Source of the DNA: a virus
Direction: 5' to 3' (one strand)
Virus record (IMG/VR): IMGVR_UViG_3300027963_004416
Location: 1-64,000 of that record
DNA: 64,000 nt
Below, piece after piece: positions 5,946 through 20,944 of the stretch. Below the pieces are notes generated by a model. The model did no database searches. It had not been told where the DNA came from and was given only the letters and a program-made list of their open reading frames with translations. The translations under genes and the position numbers were made by a program. Positions within the stretch are counted from its first letter, which is position 1. Each line of letters begins with the position of its first letter.

Positions 5946-7660
5946 TGATATATTTTAAAAATATACGCTGGAAGAACTTTCTTTCAACAGGCAATACGTT
6001 TACTGAAATAGACTTTACTCGTAACCGTTCAACTCTTATTGTAGGAGAGAATGGTGCTGGTAAATCTACTATTCTCGATGCTCTTGCATTTGCGCTTTAC
6101 GGCAAACCGTTTCGCAAGATTAACAAGCCTCAATTAATTAATACTATTAATCAGAAGAATCTCGAAGTTCATCTCGAGTTTAGCATTGGTAGGTATGATT
6201 ATAAAGTCATCAGAGGTATTAAGCCTAACGTATTTGAAATATACCAGAATGGCAATCTAATTAATCAGAGTTCGGAAAATAAAGAGTATCAAGAGATGTT
6301 TGAGAAAAGTATTCTCAAACTTAACTTTAAGTCATTCTCACAAATCGTCATATTAGGTAGCGCGTCGTTCGTACCGTTCATGCAACTACCAGCTGCACAC
6401 CGTAGAGAAGTTATTGAAGATCTACTTGATATTCAGATTTTCTCTACTATGAATACTCTCCTTAAAGATAGGGTTGTTACTAATAAAAATGATATAGTTG
6501 ATAATGATTACTTAATCAAGAGTCTTGCAGAAAAGATAGAGCTGCACAAAAAGCATATTGACTCAATGAAACAGAATAATGATGAACTTATTGAGCAAAA
6601 GAGAGTAAAGATAGCTGAATATGAACAGCAAATAATTACAGTTAATGAGAAAATACAGGAGTGCTCGACTCTTTCAAGTGCTTTAGATGCTGATGTAAAT
6701 CAGATAGAAGTTCTACGAGAAAATGATAGAAATCTGCGTGAACTCTATCGCAAGATGTACGAGAAATCAGTTAAGCTTATTAAAGAAAGTAATTTCTATC
6801 GAGACAACGATAATTGTCCTACGTGTAAGCAAGGTATTTCTCACGACTTTAAGGAACATGTTCTTAGCGATAATGATAATGTTGTTGGCGAAATTAGTGC
6901 AGGGCTAGGTCAAATGGATCGCAAGCTCAATCGTATTAATGAAAAGATTAGTCTTTATTCTAAGTCGTTTGAAAGACAGCAAGAACTACAAAAGGAAATT
7001 ACAGAGCATCATAATGCCGTTACAGTATGCAATGAATTTATAAAAGGACTTAATGCTGAGATATTGCTACTACAGAACAATACAAAGCATATTGATGCAG
7101 GTAATGAAGAGGTTAAAGAATTAAAAACTAACCTCAAAGATGCGTTAACTCGTAAAGAAAACCTAACTGAAGATAGAAAGCTACTAGATGTAGCTGGTAT
7201 TCTTCTTAAGGATTCAGGTATTAAGACGAAGATTATTAAGCAGTACGTGCCTGTTATGAATAAGCTTATTAACAAGTACCTGGCGGCTATGGACTTCTTT
7301 GTTAATTTTGAATTGAATGAGAATTTTGAAGAAACTATTAAATCGAGGTTTAGGGATGAATTTAGTTATGAATCTTTTAGCGAAGGTGAAAAGATGCGTA
7401 TTGACCTTGCTCTACTCTTTACCTGGAGAGCAATTGCTAAGCTGCGCAATTCTGCTAGTACTAATCTTCTTATCATGGACGAGGTTTTCGACAGCAGTCT
7501 AGATAATTCAGGTACAGATGAGTTCTTAAAGATTATTCAAACTATCACCGCAGATACTAATATCTTTATTATTAGTCATAAAGGTGATCAGTTATATGAT
7601 AAGTTTCATAGCGTTATTAAATTTGAAAAGCATAAAAACTTTAGCAGGATGGCAGCATGA
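5945..7660 (+). CDS. gp46: Recombination ATPase gp46 (Rad50/SbcC-like)
   Basis: GENGAGKST, CPTC hook, FSEGEKMRIDLALLF, DEVFDSSLD. Confidence 0.95.
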   Translation: MIYFKNIRWKNFLSTGNTFTEIDFTRNRSTLIVGENGAGKSTILDALAFALYGKPFRKINKPQLINTINQKNLEVHLEFSIGRYDYKVIRGIKPNVFEIYQNGNLINQSSENKEYQEMFEKSILKLNFKSFSQIVILGSASFVPFMQLPAAHRREVIEDLLDIQIFSTMNTLLKDRVVTNKNDIVDNDYLIKSLAEKIELHKKHIDSMKQNNDELIEQKRVKIAEYEQQIITVNEKIQECSTLSSALDADVNQIEVLRENDRNLRELYRKMYEKSVKLIKESNFYRDNDNCPTCKQGISHDFKEHVLSDNDNVVGEISAGLGQMDRKLNRINEKISLYSKSFERQQELQKEITEHHNAVTVCNEFIKGLNAEILLLQNNTKHIDAGNEEVKELKTNLKDALTRKENLTEDRKLLDVAGILLKDSGIKTKIIKQYVPVMNKLINKYLAAMDFFVNFELNENFEETIKSRFRDEFSYESFSEGEKMRIDLALLFTWRAIAKLRNSASTNLLIMDEVFDSSLDNSGTDEFLKIIQTITADTNIFIISHKGDQLYDKFHSVIKFEKHKNFSRMAA

Positions 7661-8181
7661 TATATGAATTAGTTAAACCTGATCATCATCTTCTCTTTAC
7701 TAAGTTGGAGAGATTTAACTTTACTGAACCACCTATTCATCCAGTTGAATTAGCTAATAACCTTATCGAGACTATGGTTCACAATAAAGGAATCGGTCTC
7801 TCAGCTAATCAAGTAGGATTACCTTACAGAGTGTTTGTTCTACATTCAGTAGAGCCCTTAGCTTTATTTAATCCTTCGATTGTTGACTCGACTACTGAGG
7901 AAGTAAAACTAGACGAGGGGTGCTTAACGTATCCTAATTTATTCTTACCAATTAAAAGACCATCGGTAATTAAGGTCAGGTATCAAGATGCATTTGGTGA
8001 ATTCCATACGGAAAAGTTTATCGGAATGACCGCGCGATGCGTACAACATGAGCTTGACCATTTAAACGGTATCGATTATACTAAGAGAGCTAATGCAATT
8101 CATTTAACAAGAGCTCTTAATCAAAAGAAGATTCTTGATAGGAAAGTTAAGAAGCTAAAGCAGATTGGCCGAGCTATATAA
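7657..8181 (+). CDS. def: Peptide deformylase
   Basis: GIGLSANQVG, EGCLT, QHELDHLNG. Confidence 0.93.
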   Translation: MIYELVKPDHHLLFTKLERFNFTEPPIHPVELANNLIETMVHNKGIGLSANQVGLPYRVFVLHSVEPLALFNPSIVDSTTEEVKLDEGCLTYPNLFLPIKRPSVIKVRYQDAFGEFHTEKFIGMTARCVQHELDHLNGIDYTKRANAIHLTRALNQKKILDRKVKKLKQIGRAI

Positions 8182-8217: not shown

Positions 8218-9075
8218 ATGTCAAAAATTAAAGTCGCAGAGCTTTTTTATAGCCTGCAAGGTGAAGGGCGCTTTGTAGGTGTGCCTTCAATCTTTTTAAG
8301 AACTTTCGGTTGTAACTTCCAATGTGCCGGATTTGGCATGCCACCAGGACAGCTGAGTGATGAGAGAGATAATGTTGCTAGCCAAATTTCTAATTATAAA
8401 CTCTATGAAGAGCTTCCTCTGGTTCATACTGGATGTGATTCTTATGCTAGTTGGGATCCTCGTTTTAAGCATCTTAGTCCTGTACGATCTACTGACGAAA
8501 TTGCTCAAAAGATTTTTGAGCTGCTTCCAGAACGAAAATGGAAAAAAGAGCATTTAGTTATTACTGGCGGAGAGCCTCTTCTAGGATGGCAGCGTTCGTT
8601 CCCTGATCTTATCAAGCGCGCTGATTTCATCTACGATCTAGAAAACCTTACGTTTGAAACGAACGGTACTCAACCTTTAACAGAAGATTTTAAATACTTC
8701 TTGTTTGAAGAATTTACTAGATTTGGCCGTAACTTTGATCGACTTACATTCTCAGTATCAGCTAAACTTCCATGCTCAGGTGAGAAGTGGGAGGATGCTA
8801 TCAAGCCAGAAATTGTTCACGACTATCAAGGTATTGGTCATACCTATCTTAAGTTTGTAGTTGCGACGGAAGAAGATATTGAAGATGCTAAAAAGGCAGT
8901 TAAAGAATTTAAAGACGGCGGCTTTATCGGTGATGTATATTTGATGCCTGTTGGTGGTACAGAGCAAGTTTATTATTTAAACAATAAACAAGTAGCAGAG
9001 CATGCTATGAAATTAGGGTGGAGATACTCTCCGCGATTGCAAGTAGATATTTGGAGAAACGCATGGGGGACATAG
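8218..9075 (+). CDS. queE: 7-carboxy-7-deazaguanine synthase (radical SAM) QueE
   Basis: ELFYSLQGEG, GCNFQC...GCDS, ITGGEP, ETNGT. Confidence 0.9.
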   Translation: MSKIKVAELFYSLQGEGRFVGVPSIFLRTFGCNFQCAGFGMPPGQLSDERDNVASQISNYKLYEELPLVHTGCDSYASWDPRFKHLSPVRSTDEIAQKIFELLPERKWKKEHLVITGGEPLLGWQRSFPDLIKRADFIYDLENLTFETNGTQPLTEDFKYFLFEEFTRFGRNFDRLTFSVSAKLPCSGEKWEDAIKPEIVHDYQGIGHTYLKFVVATEEDIEDAKKAVKEFKDGGFIGDVYLMPVGGTEQVYYLNNKQVAEHAMKLGWRYSPRLQVDIWRNAWGT

Positions 9076-9497
9076 GAACCTATGAATTTACATTTGCTGA
9101 GTTTAGTTCAGCCATAGACGAACTAGTAGAGCAAATTAGAAAGAAGAAAATTAAGTATAATTATATCGTAGGCTTAACTAGAGGCGGTCTGATACCTGCT
9201 ACTATTCTAAGTCATAAGCTCGATGTCCCTATGCTAGCAAGCAATTGGGACACTGACCGTAAGAAGCCATCCATTACATTGATGGATATTCTCGATAATC
9301 CTAGAAATAAGGTCCTACTTGTAGATGAAATTTTAGATACGGGTAAGACTATTCAATCGTTTATGGAGATTCACGGCAAGACAGATGTAGCAGTGATAGT
9401 ATGGAACAAAGAACAGCCGGTAGTTCCAGACTACCATTACATGACAATACGGCGATCAGAATTTAGTGATTGGATTGATTTTTGGTGGGAGAAATAA
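9063..9497 (+). CDS. Type I phosphoribosyltransferase (Gpt-like)
   Basis: GLTRGGLIPA and PRPP loop VLLVDEILDTGKT; WIDFWWE end. Confidence 0.85.
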   Translation: MGDIGTYEFTFAEFSSAIDELVEQIRKKKIKYNYIVGLTRGGLIPATILSHKLDVPMLASNWDTDRKKPSITLMDILDNPRNKVLLVDEILDTGKTIQSFMEIHGKTDVAVIVWNKEQPVVPDYHYMTIRRSEFSDWIDFWWEK

Positions 9498-9498
9498 T

Positions 9499-9966
9499 AT
9501 GGGAAAGTTTTATAGTACTAAGACATACGGTAATGATCGAGGTCTAAGTTGTTGTTTTAGACAATGGAAAAGTACTCACAGTCATTGCTGTCTCTTGCAC
9601 GGATATTCTATTGGCGTGCATGTTACGTTTGAATGTGATAGTCTAGATGACCGCAATTGGGTTATGGACTTTGGTGGGCTGAAGGAGTTTAAAGAATGGC
9701 TAGAATACATGTTTGACCATACTTTAATTCTAGCAGAAGACGATCCGGAACTTAATACGCTTAAGCAGCTGCACGGTATGGGTGTAGCAGATGTTAGAGT
9801 AGTACCTGCTGTGGGTTGTGAGCGGTTTGCGGAGCTTGCCTATAATCAGCTTGCATTAATGCTGGATGACTGGAGAGAAAATGGAACTCTACTTAACCCC
9901 ACCGTGCGTGTAAGGTCAGTAGAAGTATTTGAGCATGCGGGTAACTCAGCATTTTATGAAGGTTAA
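9499..9966 (+). CDS. queD: 6-carboxytetrahydropterin synthase QueD
   Basis: HCCLLHGY, WVMDFGGLK, FDHT, VEVFEH. Confidence 0.9.
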   Translation: MGKFYSTKTYGNDRGLSCCFRQWKSTHSHCCLLHGYSIGVHVTFECDSLDDRNWVMDFGGLKEFKEWLEYMFDHTLILAEDDPELNTLKQLHGMGVADVRVVPAVGCERFAELAYNQLALMLDDWRENGTLLNPTVRVRSVEVFEHAGNSAFYEG

Positions 9967-9968
9967 TA

Positions 9969-10652
9969 ATGAAGTATACTGAACTGTTGCGTAATAAACT
10001 CATTAACAACAAGATAAGGTATTGGGCCGGTGATAATATTTCCTCAATTCTCAATGATGCAGATCGTGAATTTATTATTGAAGAGGCTACAAAAGCGTTT
10101 GAAGGAGTACTGGATGCTTTGCTCATTGACCGGGAAAATGACCCAAACTCAAAGGGAACAGCGAAAAGACTAGCTAAGATGTATGTTCAGGAAATTATGG
10201 CTGGTAGATATTTTCCTAGACCAGATGCTACCTCGTTCCCTAACGTAGGTAATGCTGCATACAAAGGGATGCTTGTAGTCAGGTCCGAATTAAAGTCAAT
10301 GTGTTCGCATCATCATCAGCCCGTATCCGGTGTTGCTTATATTGGTATTATTCCTGAGGATAAGGTTATAGGGCTTTCAAAGTACACGCGTATTGCGCAG
10401 TGGTGTGCCCGGCGTGGAACTTTGCAAGAAGAACTCTGCAACGATATTGCTCGCGAAATTAAAAGTGCTACGGGTAGCAAAGACGTAGCGGTTTATATTC
10501 AGGCTACTCATGGGTGCTGTGAGAATAGAGGTATTGGTGCTCATTCATCTCTTACTCAAACAACCGTACTTAAAGGCCAGTTTAAAGAGGCAGATGTAAA
10601 GAAAGAGTTTTTTGATAACGTAAAGCTGCAACAAGAATTCGCACCCCGTTGA
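9969..10652 (+). CDS. folE: GTP cyclohydrolase I
   Basis: SMCSHHHQP, GLSKYTR, LQEEL, HGCCENRG. Confidence 0.93.
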   Translation: MKYTELLRNKLINNKIRYWAGDNISSILNDADREFIIEEATKAFEGVLDALLIDRENDPNSKGTAKRLAKMYVQEIMAGRYFPRPDATSFPNVGNAAYKGMLVVRSELKSMCSHHHQPVSGVAYIGIIPEDKVIGLSKYTRIAQWCARRGTLQEELCNDIAREIKSATGSKDVAVYIQATHGCCENRGIGAHSSLTQTTVLKGQFKEADVKKEFFDNVKLQQEFAPR

Positions 10653-10666
10653 GTTAAATACGCAGA

Positions 10667-11179
10667 GTGACTAAACTATCAGAAGAGTCGGCAAAAGAAG
10701 CTGATTATCTAATTCATAAATGTTTAAGTGAGATATTTAAAGATATGGTTTGGTATCAGAACTCAGAAGGCAGATACGGTGAATCTGGTCGTAAGGGGGA
10801 TAGCGGTGAAGGGGTAGTTGAGCGCTATCTTGTAGAGAATAATATTGAATATGAAAAGAAAGAAGATCCTCATAGTCAAGTTAAATTGAAAATAGATTTT
10901 ACAGTTGATGGGCATCCTATCGATGTTAAAACTAACATCTTTAAAGGATTTCTAGGAGTAGAAGTCTATGACGATAAAGCCCGTAACGGCTGGATTTATA
11001 CTACTACTGCCCGTGAAATCTACGGTGTTGATTTAGTCTACGAAAGCATTTACTGCTATGAGGTAGATGCAATGCGAGCGCATGTAGAGAAGAACAAGCA
11101 CAGAGCTAGGCTTGTCAAGAACGGAGCTTATATTCTCTGGGTATCAAAAAACGAACCATTTATTAAGAAGCTGCAATGA
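10667..11179 (+). CDS. Hypothetical, PD-(D/E)xK nuclease-like
   Basis: GE..VE...IDF-x6-IDVKT pattern typical of the restriction-endonuclease fold; GTG start. Confidence 0.55.
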   Translation: MTKLSEESAKEADYLIHKCLSEIFKDMVWYQNSEGRYGESGRKGDSGEGVVERYLVENNIEYEKKEDPHSQVKLKIDFTVDGHPIDVKTNIFKGFLGVEVYDDKARNGWIYTTTAREIYGVDLVYESIYCYEVDAMRAHVEKNKHRARLVKNGAYILWVSKNEPFIKKLQ

Positions 11180-11964
11180 AAATAGCCCACGAAGCCCCTC
11201 TAAGTATTTTTAATAAAGTGCAAGAAGTAACCGACTATGATTATGCTCTTGTACATCTTTTTGAAGAAAATGAGAAGTACTATAGTCTTTTTGAAAGAGC
11301 ATTGCAGAAGAAACGTGAAGTAATACTTGACAATTCTGTATTTGAGCTCGGTACTGCTTTTGACAGAGACAAATACTGTGAATGGATTGAGAAGCTAGAT
11401 CCTACTTATTATATTATTCCGGATGTTCTTGAAGACGCCCAGCAAACAGTTAAGAATGTTCAGCAATGGCAACATCTTGCAGGTAAAAAGTCTATCGGGG
11501 TAGTTCAAGGTAAGAGCGTTCAAGAAATAGTCTGGTGCTATCAAGAGATTGAACCGTTAGTTGATAAGATTGCTATTTCTTTTGATTACTCTTTCTTTGT
11601 TAACGAAGAGATTAATGGCGTTCTCCCGACGAAGTACCATCACTATATGTACGGGCGAGATGCTTTAATTAATTACATGCTTAATATTGCAAATGTGATC
11701 AATATTAATAAGCCTCATCACCTTCTAGGCTGCGGGCTTCCTCAAGAGTTTGATGTGTATCGAGGCTATAAATGGATTGATTCTCTAGATACATCTAATC
11801 CTGTAGTTGCTGGTTTGAAAGATATTCGATATAATGGTATTAAAGGATTGGAAGATAAGCCTATCGAGAAGCTCTATACGCTTATTAACTCGGATATTAA
11901 TGATGAGCAATTGAGCAAGATTTTTTATAATATTGAGTGCTTTAGGTCAATAGTTAATGGTTAA
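11176..11964 (+). CDS. dpdA: DpdA-family (TGT-like) 7-deazaguanine transglycosylase, probably DpdA3-like
   Basis: TGT-like motifs ILDNSVFE, VVQG, HHLLG, SLDTSNPV; embedded in the que cluster. Confidence 0.75.
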   Translation: MKIAHEAPLSIFNKVQEVTDYDYALVHLFEENEKYYSLFERALQKKREVILDNSVFELGTAFDRDKYCEWIEKLDPTYYIIPDVLEDAQQTVKNVQQWQHLAGKKSIGVVQGKSVQEIVWCYQEIEPLVDKIAISFDYSFFVNEEINGVLPTKYHHYMYGRDALINYMLNIANVININKPHHLLGCGLPQEFDVYRGYKWIDSLDTSNPVVAGLKDIRYNGIKGLEDKPIEKLYTLINSDINDEQLSKIFYNIECFRSIVNG

Positions 11965-12502
11965 AGATAGGCGATGGGTTGCTTTATTTTCTCAGACAGG
12001 TTCTGAGATATCTGCTATTTCTTCAAAGCTTGGTATTAAGCCGGATCTAGTATATACTAATAATCTAGAGCACGCTTCGTGGCATCCTTTTATTAATACC
12101 TGTAACGTCGTATCTAATACGCATGCTAATATTATGCGGCTTATTAGAAAGGACGCATCTGATACAGTCTATACGCTGCATGGATATCTTAGGATTATTA
12201 ATGAAGATATTGTTAACTCTCGTGAAATGTATAATGGGCATCCTGGACTAATTACAAAGTACCCGGAGCTTAAAGGTAAAGATCCTCAAGAGGTGGTAGC
12301 AAAGAATCTTTCTCTTTACGATAGAATTGGAAGTATCATTCATAAGGTTACACCTGAAGTAGATGCAGGAGAGATACTTTATGAGTTTGCTGTGTTTAAT
12401 AGTTGTAACTCGCGAGAAGAGATATACGATACTCTGAAGCTTACTTCTCTTCATTCATGGCTTGCTTTTTTTAAGGATAAATTTGAATGCGAATTGGTCT
12501 AA
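11957..12502 (+). CDS. PurN-like formyltransferase (DpdN-like preQ1 formyltransferase candidate)
   Basis: ALFSQTGS, NGHPGL..YPELKG, IHKVTPEVDAGEI of the GAR-transformylase fold. Confidence 0.8.
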   Translation: MVKDRRWVALFSQTGSEISAISSKLGIKPDLVYTNNLEHASWHPFINTCNVVSNTHANIMRLIRKDASDTVYTLHGYLRIINEDIVNSREMYNGHPGLITKYPELKGKDPQEVVAKNLSLYDRIGSIIHKVTPEVDAGEILYEFAVFNSCNSREEIYDTLKLTSLHSWLAFFKDKFECELV

Positions 12503-13038
12503 GCGGTGCACAGTCTACTGGTAAAACGACTCTATTGAATGCGTTGCGTTCAGAGCCGTTCTTTAAAACCTATGATGTTTGCAGTGAAGTGACGAGAAAG
12601 GTTGCATCATATGGTCTGCCTATTAACGAAGAAGGCACTGATACAACACAAGAGCTGATTATGAATCAGCATATAGTTAATCTTTCTATGCATAATCATA
12701 TGATTACAGATAGAACAGTACTTGATGGTTATGTCTATTCCAGATATTTACGAGAGAATGGCAAGATTAAGTCTGATACTATGGATTATGTTGAGACTGT
12801 TTTTAATCGAATGATAAGTGGGTATGATATGATTTTTTATATTGCACCAGAGTTCGAGATTAAAAATGATGGTGTTCGCTCTATTAATACTTTCTTTAGA
12901 GAACGTATAGTAAATATCTTCGACGAAGCCATTACACGTTTTGAGATTCCAGTCTATCGTGTAAAAGGTACGGTGAGGGAGCGAGTTCAATTTGTACTTA
13001 ATGCAGTAGAAATTAATAGGGAAATGAATAAAATATGA
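12487..13038 (+). CDS. P-loop nucleoside/nucleotide kinase (NadR/AAA_28-like)
   Basis: GAQSTGKTT, ITDRTVLD..Y, DGVR. Confidence 0.75.
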   Translation: MRIGLSGAQSTGKTTLLNALRSEPFFKTYDVCSEVTRKVASYGLPINEEGTDTTQELIMNQHIVNLSMHNHMITDRTVLDGYVYSRYLRENGKIKSDTMDYVETVFNRMISGYDMIFYIAPEFEIKNDGVRSINTFFRERIVNIFDEAITRFEIPVYRVKGTVRERVQFVLNAVEINREMNKI

Positions 13039-13964
13039 GTGATAATCAAAAAACATTAAATGATCTTGTCTCAGTTCACCTAGGTCGCGCAGGTGATGGG
13101 ACAGTAGTCAAGCCCTATGTTACACCAGATAGTGTAGATGAGTCGCTTCTGGTATCTGTGCCTAGACAGCTTAATCGAACTGAGTATGAGCTTCACGACG
13201 ACAATCTACCCTTCATCGGACACGATGCGTGGAATGCTTATGAATTCTCAACCTTACTTAAGAACGGATTTCCTATTTCCGGCTGGTTGAAGTTTGTTTG
13301 CGATAGCAAAAGCCCTAACATTGTAGAGTCAAAGTCAGTAAAGCTATATCTCAATTCTTATAATATGGCCAAGCTGATGGATACCCCGGATGATCTATGG
13401 ATGATCGAAGACCAGATCTCTTCTCATCTAAGCAGAGCCACCGGTGCTGATGTATGGGTACAGATTGCAATTGGTCATGTGGATGAGTCTATTCCTATTA
13501 AAGGTGACTTTACTTCGCTCGAATCGTATTGCAATATACTAGAACTAACGTTTGACGAATATACCGAAAGGTCTGATATTCTACAGGTTGTTCCTAGTAT
13601 AGGGCGTTACGAGCGTTGGCGTTCGCATTCGTTGCGTTCAAACTGCCGAGTAACTAATCAGCCTGATTGGGGAGATGTGTACGTTCATATTAAAGGTAAA
13701 AACGCAGTTACACCAGAATCTCTTCTGCAATATATTGTAAGCATGCGCAAAGAGAATCATTTCCATGAAGAGATTTGTGAATGTATTTACAAGCGACTTT
13801 ACGATATCCTAGAGCCAGAAGAGCTTCTAGTTGCATGCTTGTATACACGTCGTGGCGGTATTGATATTAATCCGGTTCGCGCTTCATCATCAGAAGTATT
13901 GTATCAATATGCAGGCTCTTTGGTGTCTGAATTTAATTTCTGCAAAAAGACGATGAGGCAGTAA
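13035..13964 (+). CDS. queF: preQ0 nitrile reductase QueF (bimodular)
   Basis: VESKSVKLYLNSY, LRSNCRVTNQPDWG, FHEEICE, YTRRGGIDINP. Confidence 0.92.
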   Translation: MSDNQKTLNDLVSVHLGRAGDGTVVKPYVTPDSVDESLLVSVPRQLNRTEYELHDDNLPFIGHDAWNAYEFSTLLKNGFPISGWLKFVCDSKSPNIVESKSVKLYLNSYNMAKLMDTPDDLWMIEDQISSHLSRATGADVWVQIAIGHVDESIPIKGDFTSLESYCNILELTFDEYTERSDILQVVPSIGRYERWRSHSLRSNCRVTNQPDWGDVYVHIKGKNAVTPESLLQYIVSMRKENHFHEEICECIYKRLYDILEPEELLVACLYTRRGGIDINPVRASSSEVLYQYAGSLVSEFNFCKKTMRQ

Positions 13965-14164
13965 TGGATTCACCGGATAAGAATGTTAATGAAATTTGTG
14001 ACGAGTTCGTTGCTAGATCTTTACACGGGTATAACAAGTACAGAGTTACAACAGAAAGAACCGATCTAAACTTTGATCAATGGGTACAGCATCTTAAAGA
14101 AGAGCTAATGGATGCTGTAGTCTATATTCATAGAGTGCAGAAGGAACGAAATGAACCTAAGTGA
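13964..14164 (+). CDS. Small all-alpha NTP pyrophosphohydrolase-like (MazG-like) protein
   Basis: G..KY and HLKEELMDAVVY acidic helix (EExxD). Confidence 0.5.
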   Translation: MDSPDKNVNEICDEFVARSLHGYNKYRVTTERTDLNFDQWVQHLKEELMDAVVYIHRVQKERNEPK

Positions 14165-14903
14165 TGCTCTTAGTAGCCTACCTGATACTAATAAAAACGT
14201 TTTAGCCGTATTGTCAGGCGGGTTGGACTCTTCTATCATGACCATGCTTCTGGTAGAGAAATATGGGGCTGATAAAGTATTTGCGCTCTCATATGATTAT
14301 GGCCAGAAGCAGAAACATGAACTCAATTGCGCAACAACGCTATGTGAATCGCTAGGTATTGATCATAAAATTCTTGATCTATCTATTCTAGGAGAAATAG
14401 CTAAGCCTATTTCAGCTAATATTAGTGGTACAGATGTTGCCATGCCTACAATTAAAGACGTTTTAGGAGACCCTCAACCTAAAACGTACGTACCTTTTAG
14501 AAATTTGATTTTATTGTCTCTTACTCTTGCGCAGGCTGAAGCTACAGATGCATCATATGTGTTTACTGGTCTACAGGTTCATGACGAGTATGGCTATTGG
14601 GATACAACACAACGGTTTGTAGATAGCATTAATACGGTAGCGGAGCAGAATAGAACACATAAAGTTAAGATAGTTGCACCGTTCAGTCACCTCAGCAAGC
14701 ATCAAGAGATCGAAATCTGTAAAGAACTTAAGCTAGAACATCTCCTACAGTATACTTTGACTTGCTATAATCCATCAGACGATGGTGAGAGCTGCGGTAA
14801 GTGTCCTTCTTGTGCAGAAAGGATAGCTAACTTCGCTAAAGCAGGGTTAGAAGATCCGGTAGATTATTCTATTGATATACCGTGGGATAAGTTGATTAAG
14901 TAA
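14151..14903 (+). CDS. queC: 7-cyano-7-deazaguanine synthase QueC
   Basis: SGGLDS, YGQK, YVPFRN, TCY...CGKCPSC. Confidence 0.95.
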   Translation: MNLSDALSSLPDTNKNVLAVLSGGLDSSIMTMLLVEKYGADKVFALSYDYGQKQKHELNCATTLCESLGIDHKILDLSILGEIAKPISANISGTDVAMPTIKDVLGDPQPKTYVPFRNLILLSLTLAQAEATDASYVFTGLQVHDEYGYWDTTQRFVDSINTVAEQNRTHKVKIVAPFSHLSKHQEIEICKELKLEHLLQYTLTCYNPSDDGESCGKCPSCAERIANFAKAGLEDPVDYSIDIPWDKLIK

Positions 14904-14946
14904 TGAGTATATTCTATAATTAATCAACTCAACGGATAATTATAAT

Positions 14947-15627
14947 ATGTGCGCAATTATTGGTTCATTTGATACAACAAAGCTACACGAGCTTATTAAG
15001 TTAAATTCCTATCGAGGAAGTCATTCGTATTCGTTCTCTCTGTATGATACGTATACCGGTACACTTACTTTAATCAAGCAAGGTCTTGGTAATATCGATT
15101 TGTCTTTGGTAGAAGTGCCGCAGAGACAGTACGGAGTGGTTCATGTTCAAGCACCTACTACAGAGTCAAATAGTATTAATTCAATTCACCCGGCGCGCAT
15201 GGATTTGATTTCGACGTTCCAGGTTAGTAAGGACGTCAAGCATGAAGTATATGAAAAATGCCTCTGGCATAATGGTATTCTAAAGGAAGATGTAGTTAAG
15301 AAGTTGCAGGAGCATAGCGGAGATATTAAATGGGATACAATGCTTATGCTTCTTGAACTCTATGCAAACGGATGGTATGCATTAGACAAGCTTGATGGTT
15401 CTTTTAGTTGCCTATATTATGCAACTAATAATATGTACTTGTTTAGGAATGAAATTTCACCGATGTTTATTGATGATAAGCTTAACGTATCATCTACGAA
15501 GTTTGAGAGTTCAAAGGCAACTGAGTCTAATAAAGTGTTGATGATGAACTTTGAAAATAAGACAGCAAGCCCGATCTTTAGTTTTAAGACGGTTGAGAAT
15601 CCTTACTTTTTTGGAGATGAAGTATGA
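14947..15627 (+). CDS. Class II (Ntn) glutamine amidotransferase domain protein
   Basis: N-terminal M-C-A-I-I-G, YRG, WHNGIL, WDT, DGSFS. Confidence 0.8.
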   Translation: MCAIIGSFDTTKLHELIKLNSYRGSHSYSFSLYDTYTGTLTLIKQGLGNIDLSLVEVPQRQYGVVHVQAPTTESNSINSIHPARMDLISTFQVSKDVKHEVYEKCLWHNGILKEDVVKKLQEHSGDIKWDTMLMLLELYANGWYALDKLDGSFSCLYYATNNMYLFRNEISPMFIDDKLNVSSTKFESSKATESNKVLMMNFENKTASPIFSFKTVENPYFFGDEV

Positions 15628-16124
15628 AGCATGTTTACGGTCGACATTCAGAGACAACTCTTTCGCATGTTGATTCTAAGTCTGATGTGCAACCGAACGC
15701 AGTAGACTTGAGATTGGGTAAGGTATATAAAATAAGTAATACTGTATTTGAAATTACTAACCATAGTAAGACTCATAGAGGTTCGACAGAAATTCACCCG
15801 GATGTAGATGGATTTTTCGAGCTTGAACCTGGCTCTTATGAAGTAATCATGAAGAATAGTATCACCGTAGGCCCTAACGAGGCCGGGTGGGTAATTACAC
15901 GAAGCACGCTGAATCGCAATGGAGTATTTCTTACTTCTGGCCTTTACGATTCAGGGTATAGTGGTGTTATGGCAGGGGTAATGCATGTAACGTGCGGACC
16001 TGCTAGAATTAAAAAGGGTACTCGTATTGGTCAGTACTTGAGTTTTGATGCAGAGGCGCTACACCTATATGACGGCGACTATGGGGTAGGTAAGGAACAT
16101 GATAAAAAATATGGAGCATCGTAA
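15624..16124 (+). CDS. Trimeric dUTPase / dCTP deaminase family
   Basis: QPNAVDLRL, RSTLNRNG, YDSGYSG, RIGQ. Confidence 0.85.
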   Translation: MKHVYGRHSETTLSHVDSKSDVQPNAVDLRLGKVYKISNTVFEITNHSKTHRGSTEIHPDVDGFFELEPGSYEVIMKNSITVGPNEAGWVITRSTLNRNGVFLTSGLYDSGYSGVMAGVMHVTCGPARIKKGTRIGQYLSFDAEALHLYDGDYGVGKEHDKKYGAS

Positions 16125-17074
16125 TGCAAATCCAAATCGCAGTTGAAGAATTACAGAAGAAAAAGCTATTCGTAGCTACGCCTATGTACGGTGGTCAGTG
16201 CGCAGGTATGTATACACGTAGCATTGCTGACCTTTCAGCAATGTGTGCAAAGTATAATATCCCTTTGCAGCTTTACTACTTGTTTAACGAGTCTCTTATT
16301 ACCAGAGCTCGTAACTATTGCGTAGATGAGTTTATGCGGTCAGATGCAACTCACCTAATGTTTATCGATAGTGATATCGGGTTTAACCCTCAAGACATTC
16401 TCGCTTTACTTGCTCTTATGACTGATGAGAGTGATTATGACGTTATGGGCGGCCCTTATCCCAAGAAGTGTATTTCCTGGGAAAAGATTAAGCAAGCAGT
16501 TGATAAGGGTGTAGCTGAAGAGGATCCAAACAAGCTAGAAAATTATGTTGGCGACTATGTATTCAATCCAAAGTCAAATACACGTGAGATTCCGCTTGGT
16601 GAGCCGGTTGAAGTTCTAGAAATTGGTACAGGCTTTATGATGGTTCAGCGTCGTGCATTTGAGCGCTATAAGGAAGCTTATCCATACCTGTCGTACAAGC
16701 CTGACCATGTCCGTACAGAGCATTTCGATGGTACACGTGAGATTCATGCCTACTTCGATTGTATTATCGACCGGGGTTTTAGCTATCAATCTCTACATGA
16801 TCTACTGGAAGACGTTGCTAACGGCAAGGAAGGTTTGCAAGCTGCAGCTAAGAAGATTGTTGACAACGAAAAAGAATCGTCTAAGCGTTACCTCTCAGAA
16901 GACTATAATTTCTGCTATCATGCAGCTAAGGCAGGTCTTAAGGTTTGGTTCTGCCCTTGGATGAAGCTACAGCACGTTGGCTCGTATATCTTCGGTGGTA
17001 GTTTGATTGACCTTGCTACGATTGGTGCTTCGGCAACAGCTGATGTATCGCAGCTACGGAAAGGTAAAAAATGA
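16124..17074 (+). CDS. GT-A fold glycosyltransferase-like protein
   Basis: ATPMYGG, NESLITRARN, FIDSDIGF (DxD), GTGFM, YLSEDY.FC. Confidence 0.7.
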   Translation: MQIQIAVEELQKKKLFVATPMYGGQCAGMYTRSIADLSAMCAKYNIPLQLYYLFNESLITRARNYCVDEFMRSDATHLMFIDSDIGFNPQDILALLALMTDESDYDVMGGPYPKKCISWEKIKQAVDKGVAEEDPNKLENYVGDYVFNPKSNTREIPLGEPVEVLEIGTGFMMVQRRAFERYKEAYPYLSYKPDHVRTEHFDGTREIHAYFDCIIDRGFSYQSLHDLLEDVANGKEGLQAAAKKIVDNEKESSKRYLSEDYNFCYHAAKAGLKVWFCPWMKLQHVGSYIFGGSLIDLATIGASATADVSQLRKGKK

Positions 17075-17730
17075 AATTAGATCAAAGAACAGTTCAAATC
17101 CTTAAGAACTTTTCTACGATTAACCCCTCTCTTATTTTTAGAGAGGGGAAGGTTCTCACGACAGTATCTCCTCAGAAAACAATTATGGCGTCAGCAACGA
17201 TTAAAGAAGAGATCCCCCGCTCCTTTGCAATCTATGATTTGTCGCGTTTTCTAGGAGTACTGTCGCTTTTCGATCAACCTGAATTAGATATTCAAGAAAG
17301 TAATATGACTATCTCTTCTGGTAAGCAGAAGGTTCAGTATACGTTTGCAGATCCTAGAATGATTATTAGTTCAGACGCTAAAGGTGTAAACATGCCAGAG
17401 GCGGAAATTAACTTTGTTCTAACTGCAGAAGACTTGCAGAAGGTTTCAAAAGCTTTGGGCGTACTTCAACTACCTGAAATCGCGGTAACAGGCGAGGATG
17501 GCGAGATGTATCTTGAGGCTATTGATTCAAAGAATCCTTCTAGTGATAACTACCGCGTTCACTTGAAGAGCACGGAGCATACTTTCAGGATGATCTTTAA
17601 GGCAGAAAATATTAAGGTAATGGGTGGTAGCTACGATGTTAACATCACTTCTAAGGGGGTCGCACAATTTAAGAGTGATGATGTTACATACTGGGTAGCA
17701 ACCGAAGCAAGTTCAAACTTTCAAGCATGA
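17071..17730 (+). CDS. gp45: Sliding clamp gp45
   Basis: ILKNFSTINPS, FAIYDLSRFLG, YWVATE. Confidence 0.93.
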   Translation: MKLDQRTVQILKNFSTINPSLIFREGKVLTTVSPQKTIMASATIKEEIPRSFAIYDLSRFLGVLSLFDQPELDIQESNMTISSGKQKVQYTFADPRMIISSDAKGVNMPEAEINFVLTAEDLQKVSKALGVLQLPEIAVTGEDGEMYLEAIDSKNPSSDNYRVHLKSTEHTFRMIFKAENIKVMGGSYDVNITSKGVAQFKSDDVTYWVATEASSNFQA

Positions 17731-18293
17731 AAAACTACGTCGAGATAGGCACTAGCGATTTTGACAATCTCGATAACTTCTTAACTCCGGATAACAGGGT
17801 CTACTTCGTAGAGCCTGTTTCAGAGTATCTTGACTCTCTTAAAAAAAGAATAGGCACTAATGATGGTGCCTTTTTTGATAACTGTGCTATTTCTAGCTAT
17901 AATGGGAAAGCTGAAATAACCTATATTGACCCTAATACTGCTTCAGAGCAATGGGTTAGAGGTATTAGTCATTTAAACTTCTCTAGTAGTAATTTAATTG
18001 AACGTAACTTAAAAGAAGGCTACTTAAGTTCATGCAAGGCTATTACGAGAAATGTTAAGTGTTTTACTTTAGATTACTTTTTTTACAGGCATGGTATTAG
18101 AGATGTAGAGTATTTAAAGATGGATGTAGAAGGTCATGAACTAGAGATTCTATGTGCTTATAACTGGAGAGTAAAACCGAAGAAGCTTAAAATAGAACAT
18201 AAGTTTGTTGATCTCAATGTGCTTTTGAGTATCTTAGCAGAACAAGGGTATACTGTTCTTGTTCATGGTGATGATGTATATGCGACGCTTTAG
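17727..18293 (+). CDS. FkbM-family SAM methyltransferase
   Basis: VEIG, FVEP, NCAIS, YLKMDVEGHE, IEH. Confidence 0.8.
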   Translation: MKNYVEIGTSDFDNLDNFLTPDNRVYFVEPVSEYLDSLKKRIGTNDGAFFDNCAISSYNGKAEITYIDPNTASEQWVRGISHLNFSSSNLIERNLKEGYLSSCKAITRNVKCFTLDYFFYRHGIRDVEYLKMDVEGHELEILCAYNWRVKPKKLKIEHKFVDLNVLLSILAEQGYTVLVHGDDVYATL

Positions 18294-20065: not shown

Positions 20066-20159
20066 CCTCCTGTAGTTTAATGGTAAAACACCCGGCTTAT
20101 ACCCGGCATTGGCTCTAGATGGGGGCACGTTACAGGTTCGAATCCTGTCGGGAGGACCA
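20066..20159 (+). tRNA. tRNA-Ile(UAU) with long variable arm
   Basis: Acceptor CCTCCTG/CGGGAGG, loop CT-TAT-AC, TTCGAAT T-loop, CCA; about 23-nt extra arm. Confidence 0.75.
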
Positions 20160-20167
20160 GATTAATT

Positions 20168-20250
20168 GCCCAGGTGGTGGAATTGGTAGACACGCTGGTC
20201 TTAGAAGCCAGTGCTTCGGCGTAAGAGTTCGAGTCTCTTCTTGGGCACCA
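20168..20250 (+). tRNA. tRNA-Leu(UAG)
   Basis: Cloverleaf, CT-TAG-AA loop, V-arm, CCA. Confidence 0.92.
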
Positions 20251-20256
20251 ATTTAT

Positions 20257-20346
20257 GGAAGTGTGGCAGCCCGGTTTATTGCAACAGTCTTGAAAACTGT
20301 CGTGCCAGCGATGGCACCGTGAGTTCGAATCTCACCGCTTCCGCCA
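20257..20346 (+). tRNA. tRNA-Ser(UGA)
   Basis: CT-TGA-AA loop, long V-arm, GCCA end. Confidence 0.92.
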
Positions 20347-20347
20347 A

Positions 20348-20421
20348 CCCGGTGTAGTTTAATGGCAGAACCGCAGCCTCCAAATCTGCATGTGGGAGTT
20401 CGATTCTCTCCACCGGGTCCA
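20348..20421 (+). tRNA. tRNA-Trp(CCA)
   Basis: CT-CCA-AA loop, CCCGGTG/CACCGGG acceptor; atypical U73 and 31:39 mismatch. Confidence 0.8.
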
Positions 20422-20423
20422 AG

Positions 20424-20451
20424 TTGACTTATATTCAATAAGCAGTATAAT
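20424..20451 (+). promoter_or_regulatory. Sigma70-type promoter inside tRNA array
   Basis: TTGACT-N16-TATAAT. Confidence 0.7.
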
Positions 20452-20459
20452 GTACGTAT

Positions 20460-20533
20460 AGCGGGATAGTGAAATGGCATCACACAGGTCTCATAAGCCT
20501 GAGTTCTTAGTTCGAATCTAGGTCCCGCAACCA
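20460..20533 (+). tRNA. tRNA-Met(CAU), initiator-like
   Basis: CT-CAT-AA loop; 1:72 A-A mismatch. Confidence 0.8.
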
Positions 20534-20539
20534 GTTTAT

Positions 20540-20615
20540 TCTCCGATAGCTCAGTCGGTAGAGCAACGGACTGTTAATCCGTGTGTCCCTGGTTCGAGCC
20601 CAGGTCGGGGAGCCA
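20540..20615 (+). tRNA. tRNA-Asn(GUU)
   Basis: CT-GTT-AA loop, GCCA end. Confidence 0.93.
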
Positions 20616-20621
20616 AGTCTT

Positions 20622-20697
20622 GCCCTGTTAGCTCATTTGGTAGAGCAACGCACTTGTAATGCGTAGGTGGTCAGTTCGAATCCGACACAGGGCACCA
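20622..20697 (+). tRNA. tRNA-Thr(UGU)
   Basis: CT-TGT-AA loop, CCA. Confidence 0.93.
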
Positions 20698-20704
20698 GTT
20701 TTCT

Positions 20705-20777
20705 GCGAGTGTGGCGCAGTTGGTAGCGCAACGGACTTTTAATCCGCTGGTCGCGAGTTCGAGTCTCGCCACTCGTA
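20705..20777 (+). tRNA. tRNA-Lys(UUU)
   Basis: CT-TTT-AA loop; followed by CAA, not CCA. Confidence 0.88.
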
Positions 20778-20784
20778 CAAGTTT

Positions 20785-20861
20785 CTCGGCGTAGTTCAGT
20801 CTGGTAGAATGCCTGCTTTGGGAGCAGGAGGTCGCAGGTTCGAACCCTGCCGCCGAGACCA
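20785..20861 (+). tRNA. tRNA-Pro(UGG)
   Basis: TT-TGG-GA loop, CCA. Confidence 0.92.
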
Positions 20862-20865
20862 AAAT

Positions 20866-20941: not shown

Positions 20942-20944
20942 AAC

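Follow-up and report, generated by a model that had tools for sequence, protein, structure and literature searches.

The window, a stretch of 64,000 nucleotides of DNA from an uncultured T4-like phage, carries at positions 8218-16124 an operon for the synthesis and transfer of a 7-deazaguanine. The question it raises is whether guanine is exchanged in finished DNA or on free nucleotides before the DNA is copied. The only paper on the transglycosylase concerned, DpdA3, argues for post-replicative insertion (PMC10516641). We consider the chances evenly balanced that the operon serves to make formyl-preQ1 (fdPreQ1) DNA through exchange by DpdA3 on a free deoxynucleoside or nucleotide, followed by a kinase and incorporation in replication. 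The guanine-replacement gene set is already known, and the gain made here is real comparative support for the partnership of DpdA3 with this kinase.

Gene content and synteny of the operon

The genes run in the following order.

8218..9075, + strand: QueE, divergent radical-SAM 7-carboxy-7-deazaguanine synthase (Radical_SAM, Fer4_12, NCBIfam, synteny)
9063..9497, + strand: 6-oxopurine (XGPRT-like) phosphoribosyltransferase, PRTase (PF00156, 50.5 bits)
9499..9966, + strand: QueD, 6-carboxytetrahydropterin synthase (PF01242, PTPS, 62 bits)
9969..10652, + strand: FolE, GTP cyclohydrolase I (PF01227, 135 bits)
10667..11179, + strand: 170-aa ORF outside known families, an optional insertion that separates FolE from DpdA3 (D...DVK motif)
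11176..11964, + strand: DpdA3, minimal TGT-fold 7-deazaguanine transglycosylase (identity to immuto, CP220 and phiST proteins, AF2 model)
11957..12502, + strand: DpdN, PurN-like formyltransferase (43% identity to immuto DpdN)
12487..13038, + strand: AAA_28 P-loop nucleoside/nucleotide kinase, partner of DpdA3 (PF13521, 70 bits)
13035..13964, + strand: QueF, two-domain preQ0 reductase (QueF_N 101 bits, QueF 68 bits)
13964..14164, + strand: conserved helical protein of 66 aa (only PHROGs of unknown function match)
14151..14903, + strand: QueC, preQ0 synthase (PF06508, 179 bits)
14947..15627, + strand: stand-alone Ntn (class II) glutamine-amidotransferase-like protein after QueC (phrog_12378, weak GATase_7)
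15624..16124, + strand: dUTPase/dCTP-deaminase-fold protein (PF22769 DCD, 55 bits)

These genes form a single co-directional, translationally coupled run on the + strand, with junctions that vary between a gap of 43 nt and an overlap of 58 nt when the ORFs are taken as originally listed. The longest ORF of the PRTase starts at GTG 9018, but its likely start is ATG 9063 with GGAG upstream, which would reduce the largest overlap from 58 to 13 nt; the longest ORF of QueD begins at GTG 9466. Immuto, a Flavobacterium phage, and more than 100 metagenomic phage contigs keep the operon order, a synteny far beyond chance, and the system occurs in at least 562 IMG/VR contigs and at least 1462 protein clusters. 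The first-pass annotation had named QueE, QueD, FolE, QueC, QueF, the PRTase, a DpdA-type protein, a PurN-like protein and the kinase as one coupled run in a T4-like phage; the profile and identity matches, the tight junctions with conserved order and the encoded gp44, gp45, gp46-like protein and RNR all agree with it. It was silent on three genes within the run, namely the 170-aa ORF, the Ntn amidotransferase-like gene and the dUTPase/dCTP-deaminase-fold gene.

QueE matches Radical_SAM (30.5 bits) and Fer4_12 in Pfam, the NCBIfam QueE models align to its N-terminal motifs and its core, and its place in the operon is the syntenic position in related loci. QueD and QueF are each 43% identical to their immuto counterparts, QueF scores 229 bits with TIGR03138, and QueC scores 171 bits with TIGR00364, above the model cut-off. 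The Ntn amidotransferase-like protein begins with Met-Cys and matches phrog_12378 (7.7e-44) but GATase_7 weakly, and its homologues adjoin QueC in KVP40/nt-1-type Vibrio phages. GTP would be converted to preQ0 by FolE, QueD, QueE and QueC, probably with ammonia from the Ntn amidotransferase, and preQ0 to preQ1 by QueF. The aminomethyl group would then be formylated by DpdN, in which the N-x-H...D triad is aligned with that of GAR transformylases. The natural substrate of PurN is a 5'-phosphorylated aminomethyl compound.

In the DNA of immuto, fdPreQ1 amounts to 345,000 per 10^6 nt and a peak of dG is absent (Cui et al. 2023). Immuto has the same enzymes in a near-identical order (QueD/QueE, PRTase, FolE, DpdA3, DpdN, AAA_28 kinase, QueF). 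On the other hand, a family A polymerase adjoins the immuto cluster whereas the backbone of the window phage is T4-like; QueC, the Ntn amidotransferase and the dUTPase-fold gene come after QueF only in the window phage; the small ORFs that follow QueF in the two phages are unrelated; and the window phage lacks the PRA-PH-like NTP pyrophosphatase and DUF4494 of immuto. Moreover, fdPreQ1 was measured in immuto DNA, while the window phage is known from its genes. The earlier prediction of formylated preQ1 DNA is nevertheless supported at the sequence level, in that all genes of the immuto set (FolE, QueD, QueE, QueC, QueF, DpdA3, DpdN) are present and syntenic, and the predicted product is fdPreQ1 as in immuto.

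DpdA3 and its kinase partner

The transglycosylase shares 51% identity with the 'DNA guanine transglycosylase' of immuto, 40% with CP220 gp056 and 24.5% with the phiST protein. An assignment to DpdA4 was rejected, since the identities to the immuto and CP220 proteins place it in DpdA3. Its AF2 model (pLDDT 97.7; only 262 aa) is superimposed on TGTs with Z 17-18 and rmsd of about 3 A over 220-230 residues, sharing the (beta/alpha)8 barrel with S. Montevideo DpdA, Z. mobilis TGT and P. horikoshii ArcTGT. D52, D83 and D205 are invariant in the family and correspond, at motif level, to the general-acid, base-recognising and nucleophile Asp residues. In contrast to those enzymes, to which it is about 11-13% identical, it is acidic (pI 5.06; family median 5.5), has only about 36 residues from strand 8 to the last helix, and lacks Ins1/Ins8-type insertions, C-terminal domains and the CxCxxC...H Zn motif. 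As modelled, DpdA3 is a bare, acidic TGT barrel without a Zn site or nucleic-acid-binding insertions. DNA may still be its substrate in spite of the acidic surface and the absent insertions. Bacterial DpdA and TGT enzymes act on DNA or tRNA, whereas a nucleotide substrate for DpdA3 is a proposal; to our knowledge, all characterised members of the superfamily work on polynucleotides, which counts against it.

The kinase shares 36% identity with gp68 of immuto and 34% with gp057 of CP220. Its AF2 model (pLDDT 94.4) is matched best by the ribosylnicotinamide kinase domain of NadR (Z 19.5, rmsd 2.5 A, 170 residues) and next by thymidylate (TMPK), deoxyguanosine (dGK) and deoxynucleoside (dNK) kinases (Z about 15), so the model indicates that it is of the nucleoside/NMP-kinase class. 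When neighbouring genes were clustered without bias across 137 non-redundant loci (DpdA3 identity capped at 90%), the kinase was the second commonest neighbour of DpdA3 (99), after QueF (104) and ahead of DpdN (86, adjoining DpdA3) and FolE (50). In 88 of the 111 non-redundant loci with adequate flanks it is at most four genes away from DpdA3, as often as QueF, and no kinase was found near DpdA3 in the other 23; in loci with at least 5 kb on either side (n = 73), kinase, QueF and FolE were found in 56, 58 and 37, respectively. One clade retains DpdA3-kinase-QueF alone among structural genes, and CP220, which has an additional HD-AAA_33 protein, retains DpdA3 and the kinase. DpdN and QueF lie too close together to leave room for a kinase in 19 close relatives. 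The kinases beside DpdA3 in phiST and Chryseobacterium phage MA9V-3 belong to AAA_18, a different P-loop family.

Natural gene fusions, each known from one short contig only, join DpdA3 with the AAA_28 kinase (P0262, 34% identical to the window kinase, with QueC next), DpdN (P0159, P0234), QueF (P0275, P0276) and DUF3310 (P0204), the last being the domain of a T7-group 'nucleotide kinase' at the gene 1.7 position (82 bits). All these partners are small-molecule enzymes. Complex prediction of DpdA3 with the kinase (partner pLDDT at least 81; at least 95% contact agreement between runs) scored 0.52 against 0.01 for the best control. This level was attained by 58 of the 80 solved complexes and by 2 of the 110 mismatches, yet scores up to 0.60 include only 7 of the 80 solved complexes and both passing mismatches, so the prediction gives the pairing weak backing. 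The earlier idea that the kinase belongs to the pathway is thus strengthened by its rank among DpdA3 neighbours, the fusion and the class of its model. That the kinase travels with, or is fused to, such a stripped-down DpdA3 suggests a swap on free nucleotides before the DNA is copied.

Substrate level of the guanine exchange

We infer pre-replicative replacement, in which DpdA3 most likely swaps guanine for the deazapurine on free dG, dGMP or dGTP. After formylation, the product would be phosphorylated by the AAA_28 kinase, carried further by host kinases and used by the phage polymerase at replication, and the displaced guanine would return via GMP to GTP through the XGPRT-like PRTase and be reused for synthesis. 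The gene identities, the synteny with immuto, the folds, the linkage of DpdA3 to the kinase and the fusions are observed here; at which level DpdA3, DpdN and the kinase act, in what order the steps follow and how dGTP is excluded belong to the inference.

In the published model, which Cui et al. 2023 propose for all DpdA subfamilies (PMC10516641), the free base, preQ1 or formyl-preQ1, arises in the cytoplasm and DpdA3 then swaps it for guanine in replicated DNA; we hold this to be plausible, though somewhat on the improbable side. DpdN may then act on DNA, and kinase and PRTase would feed pools only, for example guanine to GMP, GDP and GTP for FolE, or dNMP salvage. The TGT fold and catalytic Asp of DpdA3 are indeed those of polynucleotide-acting enzymes, an XGPRT-like PRTase suits salvage of released guanine, and the proportion of related loci without the kinase or the PRTase ranges from a fifth to two thirds. 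However, neither the Zn site nor the tRNA/DNA-binding insertions of TGT and bDpdA are present in DpdA3, which is acidic, and the kinase tracks, and fuses to, DpdA3 more closely than FolE or the PRTase and resembles nucleoside, dNMP and TMP kinases, unlike the guanylate kinase family. Moreover, tests of DpdA3 in an E. coli DNA-modification model were unsuccessful (Cui et al. 2023), and to swap all of the roughly 56,000 G in each genome copy after replication would be demanding.

Exclusion of dGTP bears on both models. Nucleotide phosphohydrolases adjoin DpdA3 in phiST (MazG), immuto (PRA-PH-like) and CP220 (HD protein), the three phages for which 100% replacement has been measured (Cui et al. 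2023), and the post-replicative model gives them no role. In its favour, no dGTP-specific pyrophosphatase was recognisable in the window phage's record (85% complete). The 66-aa ORF had been read as a MazG-like mini-protein that removes dGTP; this reading was not supported, as the ORF had no Pfam match at E<=1, nothing meaningful among solved-structure sequences and an hhalign probability of 0.2 with the immuto NTP-pyrophosphatase family. Its family (core KYG..TER.D...W..HL.EEL.DA..Y) occurs in 25 of 80 close loci. Pfam MazG, PRA-PH, HD, DUF3310 and DUF1599 were sought across the 146-kb record and none was found in the operon. The dUTPase-fold protein (84 bits with the NCBIfam archaeal-type dUTPase, below the cut-off) is probably a backbone dUTPase and may have a role in dGTP exclusion; its gene is also near DpdA3 in MA9V-3, and in Rhizobium phage RHph_I1_18, which gave no DpdA3 match, it lies upstream of a GT-like gene, gp45 and gp44. 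The 170-aa ORF, whose D...DVK motif resembles PD-(D/E)xK nucleases, had no matches in Pfam, PHROG or NCBIfam and is confined to 10 of the 80 close loci.

The first-pass annotation had the PRTase and DpdA attach the base to a (deoxy)ribose phosphate. A PRTase route of this kind would join base and PRPP into a ribonucleoside monophosphate for the kinase and the phage-encoded RNR to convert to dNTP, with DpdA3 as back-up or proofreading. Deazapurine nucleoside antibiotic pathways do begin with PRTases such as ToyH and TubE, the enzyme in the operon is of the 6-oxopurine type, and homologues occur in immuto, phiST and Synechococcus phage BUCT-ZZ01, where it adjoins a queuosine-biosynthesis gene. 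Nevertheless this route is unlikely. DpdA3 is the universal gene, whereas tblastn detected the PRTase in no more than 29 of 55 related loci and phmmer in 23 of 73; it had no homologue in CP220-type phages by tblastn, and lies about 17 kb from DpdA3 in phiST. Its best solved relatives are a purine PRTase (1vdm, 1.6e-11) and XPRT/XGPRT, and it scores 49 bits, below the cut-off, with the NCBIfam xanthine PRTase. Since it is XGPRT-like, salvage of displaced guanine is at least an equally good explanation, and it looks like an optional salvage enzyme rather than a core step.

The phage carries 14 tRNAs, among them Asn(GTT), which speaks for a role in tRNA queuosine-type modification or folate/pterin supply. 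Such a role is very improbable, because only one of the 14 is of the Q-accepting GUN type, canonical TGT is absent, DpdN and the kinase have no function in tRNA-Q, and the cultured phage closest to the cluster as a whole carries fully fdPreQ1 DNA.

Relation to other guanine-replacement systems

CP220 and phiST, with dADG and dDG, respectively, at 100% of G (Cui et al. 2023), share the minimal transglycosylase family, with a P-loop kinase and a nucleotide phosphohydrolase on its flanks, but end at CDG-derived bases without QueF and DpdN; the phiST kinase is AAA_18 and tblastn found no PRTase homologue in CP220. An ADG nucleoside in CP220-infected cells, cited by Cui et al. 2023, is in line with exchange on free nucleotides. 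In the DpdA1 cluster of Enterobacteria phage 9g, FolE, QueD, QueE, a QueC-type enzyme and DpdA likewise adjoin replication genes. However, DpdA1 is longer (317 aa), the cluster has no annotated kinase, PRTase or NTP pyrophosphatase, and replacement is partial, dG+ taking about 25% of G.

T4 makes hydroxymethyl-dC with gp56 dCTPase, gp42 dCMP hydroxymethylase and gp1 dNMP kinase, and the Z-genome of S-2L depends on DatZ, MazZ and PurZ. These two pathways serve as our working analogy: in both, a mononucleotide is remade by a phage enzyme, a dedicated kinase follows and a phosphohydrolase acts on the canonical dNTP, leading to complete replacement. The window genes are not homologous to gp42, gp1 or PurZ, the exchange would be a transglycosylation, and the window phage has no identifiable hydrolase for the canonical dNTP. 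If exchange on free nucleotides is true, these phages would replace the base before it enters DNA, contrary to the published swap on finished DNA.

The operon and its phage setting

The operon occupies positions 8218-16124 on the plus strand and consists of 13 genes arranged head to tail, whose families were assigned by Pfam, PHROG and NCBIfam searches of the ORFs. Neighbouring genes are at most 43 nt apart or overlap by 1-16 nt, once the likely later starts at 9063 and 9499 are taken, which remove two larger overlaps.

Genes of the operon in order
From 8218, +: QueE, a radical SAM protein with the QueE N-terminal motifs
9063 (likely start)-9497, +: type I phosphoribosyltransferase (PRTase; PF00156)
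After the PRTase, +: QueD and FolE, by family searches
10667-11179, +: 170-aa ORF of no assigned family, between FolE and DpdA3
11176-11964, +: 262-aa ORF (DpdA3), matching only phage families and a weak 'queuine tRNA-ribosyltransferase' PHROG
11957-12502, +: PurN-like protein (DpdN), by family searches
12487-13038, +: AAA_28 P-loop kinase, by family searches
After the kinase, +: two-domain QueF, by family searches
13964-14164, +: 66-aa ORF
Before 14947, +: QueC
14947-15627, +: 226-aa Met-Cys protein like class II (Ntn) glutamine amidotransferases
15624-16124, +: dUTPase/dCTP-deaminase-fold protein, the last gene of the operon

The phage is represented by an IMG/VR record of 145.7 kb (CheckV 85% complete, 38.5% G+C), and no near-identical DNA was found in the phage collection searched. 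The operon is flanked upstream by a gp46/SbcC-like ATPase and a peptide deformylase, and downstream by a glycosyltransferase-like gene, the gp45 clamp, an FkbM methyltransferase and the gp44 clamp loader. The closest cultured relatives of gp44 are in Stenotrophomonas phage DLP6, Methylophilales phage Melnitz, Pelagibacter phage Mosig and cyanomyoviruses; because of these relatives and the gp44/gp45/gp46-like context, the first-pass annotation was right to call the phage T4-like. The deformylase gene (7657-8181, +) lies directly upstream of the operon, a layout shared by many related contigs and by Rhizobium phage RHph_I1_18. The FkbM-family gene (17727-18293, +) is inserted between the clamp and the clamp loader, and few related loci have one. 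No riboswitch or other Rfam family was found in the window, where the Rfam matches were tRNAs only. Among the 14 genes of a tRNA array (20066-23533, +) are an Ile(TAT) gene whose variable arm is long and two of Met(CAT) type, and Asn(GTT) is the sole tRNA with a GUN (queuosine-type) anticodon among the 14.

DpdN, DpdA3 and the predicted DNA modification

With regard to the modification itself, the window DpdN is 43% identical over 175 aa (E 5e-34) to DpdN of the Flavobacterium phage immuto (YP_010114479 group). Its score against Pfam Formyl_trans_N is 24.6 bits, just below the cut-off of 26.1 (PurN, 29 bits), so that the family call rests on the immuto match. The motifs 'YNGHPG' and 'VDAGEI' align with 'LNIHPS' and 'VDAGQI' of human GART, keeping the Asn-His...Asp triad of GAR transformylase. 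The natural substrate of PurN is a 5'-phosphorylated aminomethyl compound, and DpdN has a 'TGSE' loop at what we take to be the place of the phosphate-binding 'GSN' loop of PurN, which is a hint only. The start of dpdN overlaps the stop of dpdA3 by 8 nt, and the gene is encoded together with DpdA3 and the genes from FolE through QueF. Gene order in the immuto cluster is almost identical to that of the operon (QueD, QueE, PRTase, FolE, NTP pyrophosphatase, DpdA3, DpdN, 'thymidylate kinase', QueF), and besides DpdN the immuto kinase and QueF are 36% and 43% identical to those of the window. Since immuto DNA contains 345,000 fdPreQ1 (formylated preQ1 deoxynucleoside) per 10^6 nucleotides and shows no dG peak (PMC10516641), the prediction, made by analogy, that the window phage DNA carries fdPreQ1 is well founded. 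The earlier proposal of formylated preQ1 DNA thus holds as a prediction from the immuto-like gene set and order and from DpdN with its triad. In this respect the locus is one more immuto-type cluster, and the kind of DNA modification is already known.

The transglycosylase, previously described as a divergent DpdA, is assigned to DpdA3, the subfamily that Cui, Hutinet et al. (NAR 2023, PMC10516641) defined by the proteins of immuto, Campylobacter phage CP220 and Cellulophaga phage phiST, because it is kin to all three. It is 51% identical to the immuto protein, 40% to CP220 gp056 and 24.5% to phiST CGPG_00065 (at least 91% of the length; E 1e-70 to 1e-6), and the family tree places it inside the immuto clade. 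It is also co-encoded with the 7-deazaguanine synthesis genes. These three phages showed a measured 100% replacement of G, and DpdA4 is the subfamily of archaeal viruses (PMC10516641).

Predicted folds were needed for DpdA3 and the kinase, because sequence searches against solved structures gave nothing useful for either. The AlphaFold (AF2) model of DpdA3, made from an alignment of 118 diverse sequences, has a pLDDT of 97.7 and a TGT-type (beta/alpha)8 fold. It matches ArcTGT (1iq8) with Z 17.9 and rmsd 2.8 A over 230 residues and the Z. mobilis TGT with Z 17.4, and all the top PDB matches listed for it (Foldseek, VIA-align) are TGTs. D52 (in LDNS), D83 (PD) and D205 (DTSNP) are invariant in the 118 sequences; by motif likeness they probably correspond to TGT D102, D156 and D280, that is, the general acid, the base-recognising Asp and the nucleophile.

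On the other hand, the parts with which related enzymes hold nucleic acids are missing. DpdA3 has no structural Zn motif (CxCxxC...H), its only conserved cysteines being C121 (90%) and C186 (76%), and is without the nucleic-acid-binding insertions of Ins8 and Ins1 type seen in bDpdA, DpdA1/2 and TGT. In the model, strand 8 and the last helix (helix 8) are about 36 residues apart, whereas bacterial DpdA carries a 128-residue Ins8 at the same place (PMC10164549). In the bacterial enzyme, Ins8, Ins1 and the Zn site form a positively charged crescent that holds DNA, and TGT grips the anticodon arm by Ins3 and Ins8 (PMC10164549). Moreover, DpdA3 is acidic (window protein, pI 5.06 and net charge -12; family median, pI 5.5). 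As modelled, DpdA3 is a barrel only. Some DpdA3 genes of other contigs (P0277, P0133) are interrupted by an intein that has a LAGLIDADG endonuclease, or have a NUMOD3 homing-endonuclease module at the C-terminal end, and such selfish elements suggest that DpdA3 is conserved and probably essential.

The kinase and other neighbours of DpdA3

DpdA3 is widespread, with 3446 matching proteins at E<=1e-3 (90% clusters), 1462 clusters at 50% identity, and at least 562 carrier contigs in IMG/VR, many of them 150-170 kb long. As single-sequence queries of IMG/VR, the phiST and CP220 proteins found few near relatives only. For a census of neighbours we took 234 IMG/VR loci from three parts of the DpdA3 tree, reduced them to 137 with DpdA3 at <=90% identity, and clustered every ORF within four genes of DpdA3 without prior labels. 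QueF came first among these neighbours (104 loci), followed by the AAA_28 kinase (99, Pfam-confirmed), DpdN (86, adjoining DpdA3) and FolE (50). When enough flanking DNA was available, the kinase lay within four genes of DpdA3 in 88 of 111 loci and within two genes in 76. Similarly, the 73 loci with at least 5 kb on both sides had the kinase in 56, QueF in 58, DpdN in 50, FolE in 37 and the PRTase in 23. One clade retains just DpdA3, kinase and QueF, between baseplate and capsid genes; CP220 likewise has DpdA3 and the kinase among structural genes, between tail genes, with an additional HD-AAA_33 protein on the other side of DpdA3. In phiST and Chryseobacterium phage MA9V-3, DpdA3 is adjoined by a kinase of another P-loop family, AAA_18. 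By contrast, the DpdA1 cluster of phage 9g, in which G is only partly replaced, has no annotated kinase, PRTase or pyrophosphatase.

The window kinase has the Walker A motif 'GAQSTGKT' and matches PF13521 with 70 bits. Its model (pLDDT 94.4) is closest to the ribosylnicotinamide kinase (RNK) domain of NadR (Z 19.5, rmsd 2.5 A, 170 residues), followed at Z 15-15.5 by vaccinia thymidylate kinase, human deoxyguanosine kinase and insect and protist deoxynucleoside kinases. The fold thus predicts a kinase of nucleosides or nucleoside monophosphates rather than of polynucleotides or proteins. Among cultured phages, the family occurs only in immuto, Campylobacter phages and a group of Streptomyces phages. 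In the last (for example BoomerJR and Samisti12; about 131 kb) the AAA_28 kinase gene near 67-68 kb adjoins a methyltransferase, and the pair may represent another nucleotide-level modification pathway.

DpdA3 is also found fused to other proteins. P0262, from another contig, is a fusion of an AAA_28 kinase, 34% identical to the window kinase, with DpdA3, and QueC follows it. P0204 is DpdA3 fused to DUF3310, which is also the domain (82 bits) found in a 'nucleotide kinase' that a T7-group Klebsiella phage encodes between ligase and RNA-polymerase inhibitor, at the place of T7 gene 1.7; T7 gp1.7 is a dGMP/dTMP kinase. Others are DpdA3-DpdN (P0159, P0234) and DpdA3-QueF (P0275, P0276) fusions, and the partner is a small-molecule enzyme in every case. 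The kinase fusions are leads and not proof, since each comes from one short contig. Complex prediction for DpdA3 and the window kinase gave a score of 0.52 (best control, 0.01), with partner pLDDT of at least 81 and contact agreement between runs of at least 95%; this mark is reached by 58 of 80 solved complexes and 2 of 110 mismatches, and a score at the mark but not above 0.60 was seen for only 7 of those 80 and for both mismatches. The prediction thus gives weak support to a putative DpdA3-kinase complex and does not count by itself. The linkage in most loci, the fusion and the fold class agree with the first-pass annotation in placing a kinase in the pathway.

A MazG-like function had been proposed for the 66-aa ORF, which belongs to a real, conserved family of small proteins. 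This function finds no support: the ORF has no Pfam match at E<=1, MazG and PRA-PH included; its profile gave only a chance match (E 0.15) against the sequences of solved structures; and hhalign against the immuto NTP-PPase family gave a probability of 0.2. An Atlas lead to YosH_C reached 0.78 only, and no kinship was detected to DUF3310 or to immuto gp70, the ORF at the same position. The gp70 family (L001:11924-12193, in a related locus, and relatives), which follows QueF in immuto-type clusters, has a conserved acidic 'DLYGE[FY]' end that looks like a docking peptide. DUF1599 was not found in the operon. The 170-aa ORF had no family match, and no more than 10 of 80 close loci have it; it has a D...DVK motif reminiscent of PD-(D/E)xK nucleases, and we rejected it as a counterpart of the immuto NTP pyrophosphatase because the two show no similarity. 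The slot just upstream of DpdA3 is filled by different small genes in different lineages.

The Ntn amidotransferase-like gene stands directly after QueC, and homologues adjoin QueC in KVP40, nt-1 and VH7D-type Vibrio phages and in Pseudomonas phage pf16. The protein resembles one half of a Gat-QueC fusion that has been split, and may only feed ammonia to QueC or may divert preQ0 to G+. The dUTPase-fold protein scores best with an archaeal-type dUTPase model. Together with a 316-aa glycosyltransferase-like gene (phrog_1574) it forms a conserved pair (15624-17074, +) before gp45 and gp44. In RHph_I1_18, the gene is likewise followed by the glycosyltransferase-like gene, gp45 and gp44, a DUF3310 protein stands before the pair, and no DpdA3 match was found; the gene is also near a DpdA3-like gene in MA9V-3. 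It is probably a backbone gene, and a role as a dedicated dGTPase is possible but unsupported, since dUTPase is the family that it fits best and since it also stands in the replication backbone of RHph_I1_18.

A possible nucleotide-level route

We propose that DpdA3 is no DNA transglycosylase but the first base exchanger of the TGT superfamily to act on a free deoxynucleoside or deoxynucleotide, and that with the kinase, and with DpdN where present, it forms a pre-replicative pathway; we give this proposal an even chance. The case is built from comparative genomics and predicted structures only. FolE, QueD, QueE and QueC would convert GTP to preQ0, probably with ammonia from the adjoining Ntn amidotransferase, and QueF would reduce preQ0 to preQ1. 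DpdA3 would then replace the guanine of a free deoxynucleoside or deoxynucleotide by the deazapurine, DpdN would formylate the aminomethyl group, and the AAA_28 kinase would phosphorylate the formylated product, leaving the remaining steps to host kinases and the phage polymerase, while the PRTase would recycle guanine. T4, with its dCTPase, dCMP hydroxymethylase and dNMP kinase, offers a working analogy for pre-replicative replacement. Such a route would account for the 100% replacement in DpdA3 phages, unlike DpdA1 and DpdA2 phages, and for the phosphohydrolases that adjoin DpdA3 in relatives, namely MazG in phiST, a PRA-PH-like protein in immuto and HD in CP220. It also fits the report that DpdA3 could not be made active in the E. 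coli DNA-modification model of Cui et al. (PMC10516641) and the ADG nucleoside seen in CP220-infected cells, as related in the same paper. A modified-dGTP route for Campylobacter phages was, according to citing papers, proposed before the discovery of DpdA3 (Crippen et al., 2019). Beyond Cui et al. (2023; PMC10516641), the searchable literature holds nothing on the biochemistry of DpdA3 or on a reaction at the dGMP level, and the idea of nucleotide-level action of DpdA3 is absent from it.

On the other hand, the chief rival, the published post-replicative model (PMC10516641), in which the kinase and the PRTase would serve a guanine-to-GTP loop, is possible though on balance doubtful to us. All characterised TGT and DpdA enzymes act on polynucleotides, the kinase is missing from a fifth of loci, and 19 close relatives have too little room between DpdN and QueF to accommodate it. 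Moreover, the window phage has no recognisable dGTP hydrolase: Pfam MazG, PRA-PH and HD gave no match across the whole 85%-complete record, where the dUTPase-fold protein is the only candidate hydrolase of canonical dNTPs.

The first-pass annotation had made the PRTase, together with DpdA, the step that attaches the base. The protein exceeds the PF00156 cut-off (50.5 bits), and its best solved relatives are the purine PRTase 1vdm and XPRT/XGPRT; it is not an XPRT equivalog (NCBIfam, 49 bits; cut-off 138). Tblastn detected it in 29 of 55 close loci and phmmer in 23 of 73 non-redundant ones, and it was not found in CP220. A PRTase-first route is improbable because the enzyme is dispensable in most lineages, and the proposed step is not supported. 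The PRTase is optional and closest to xanthine/guanine enzymes, and recycling of the guanine released per exchange fits at least as well as a biosynthetic role. It is very unlikely that the operon serves tRNA or folate metabolism.

Cases in which a canonical base is completely replaced are known for C, T and A, where this is achieved at the level of the nucleotide pool. For G, the 7-deazaguanine phages are the main case, to which the literature assigns post-replicative base exchange (PMC10516641). The opposite, pre-replicative model is made concrete by a bare acidic TGT barrel, by a kinase as constant as QueF, by unrelated kinases at the same position in other lineages and by the kinase fusions. 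If it is false, the locus is simply another immuto-type fdPreQ1 cluster. If it is true, it would explain complete G replacement in immuto, CP220 and phiST, and probably in a large group of aquatic myoviruses, and would add a new reaction class to the TGT fold and an enzymatic route to 7-deaza-dGTP analogues. It would also provide a rule for predicting, among hundreds of uncultured aquatic phages, those in which G is fully substituted; such genomes are resistant to many restriction enzymes and give distorted sequencing signals.
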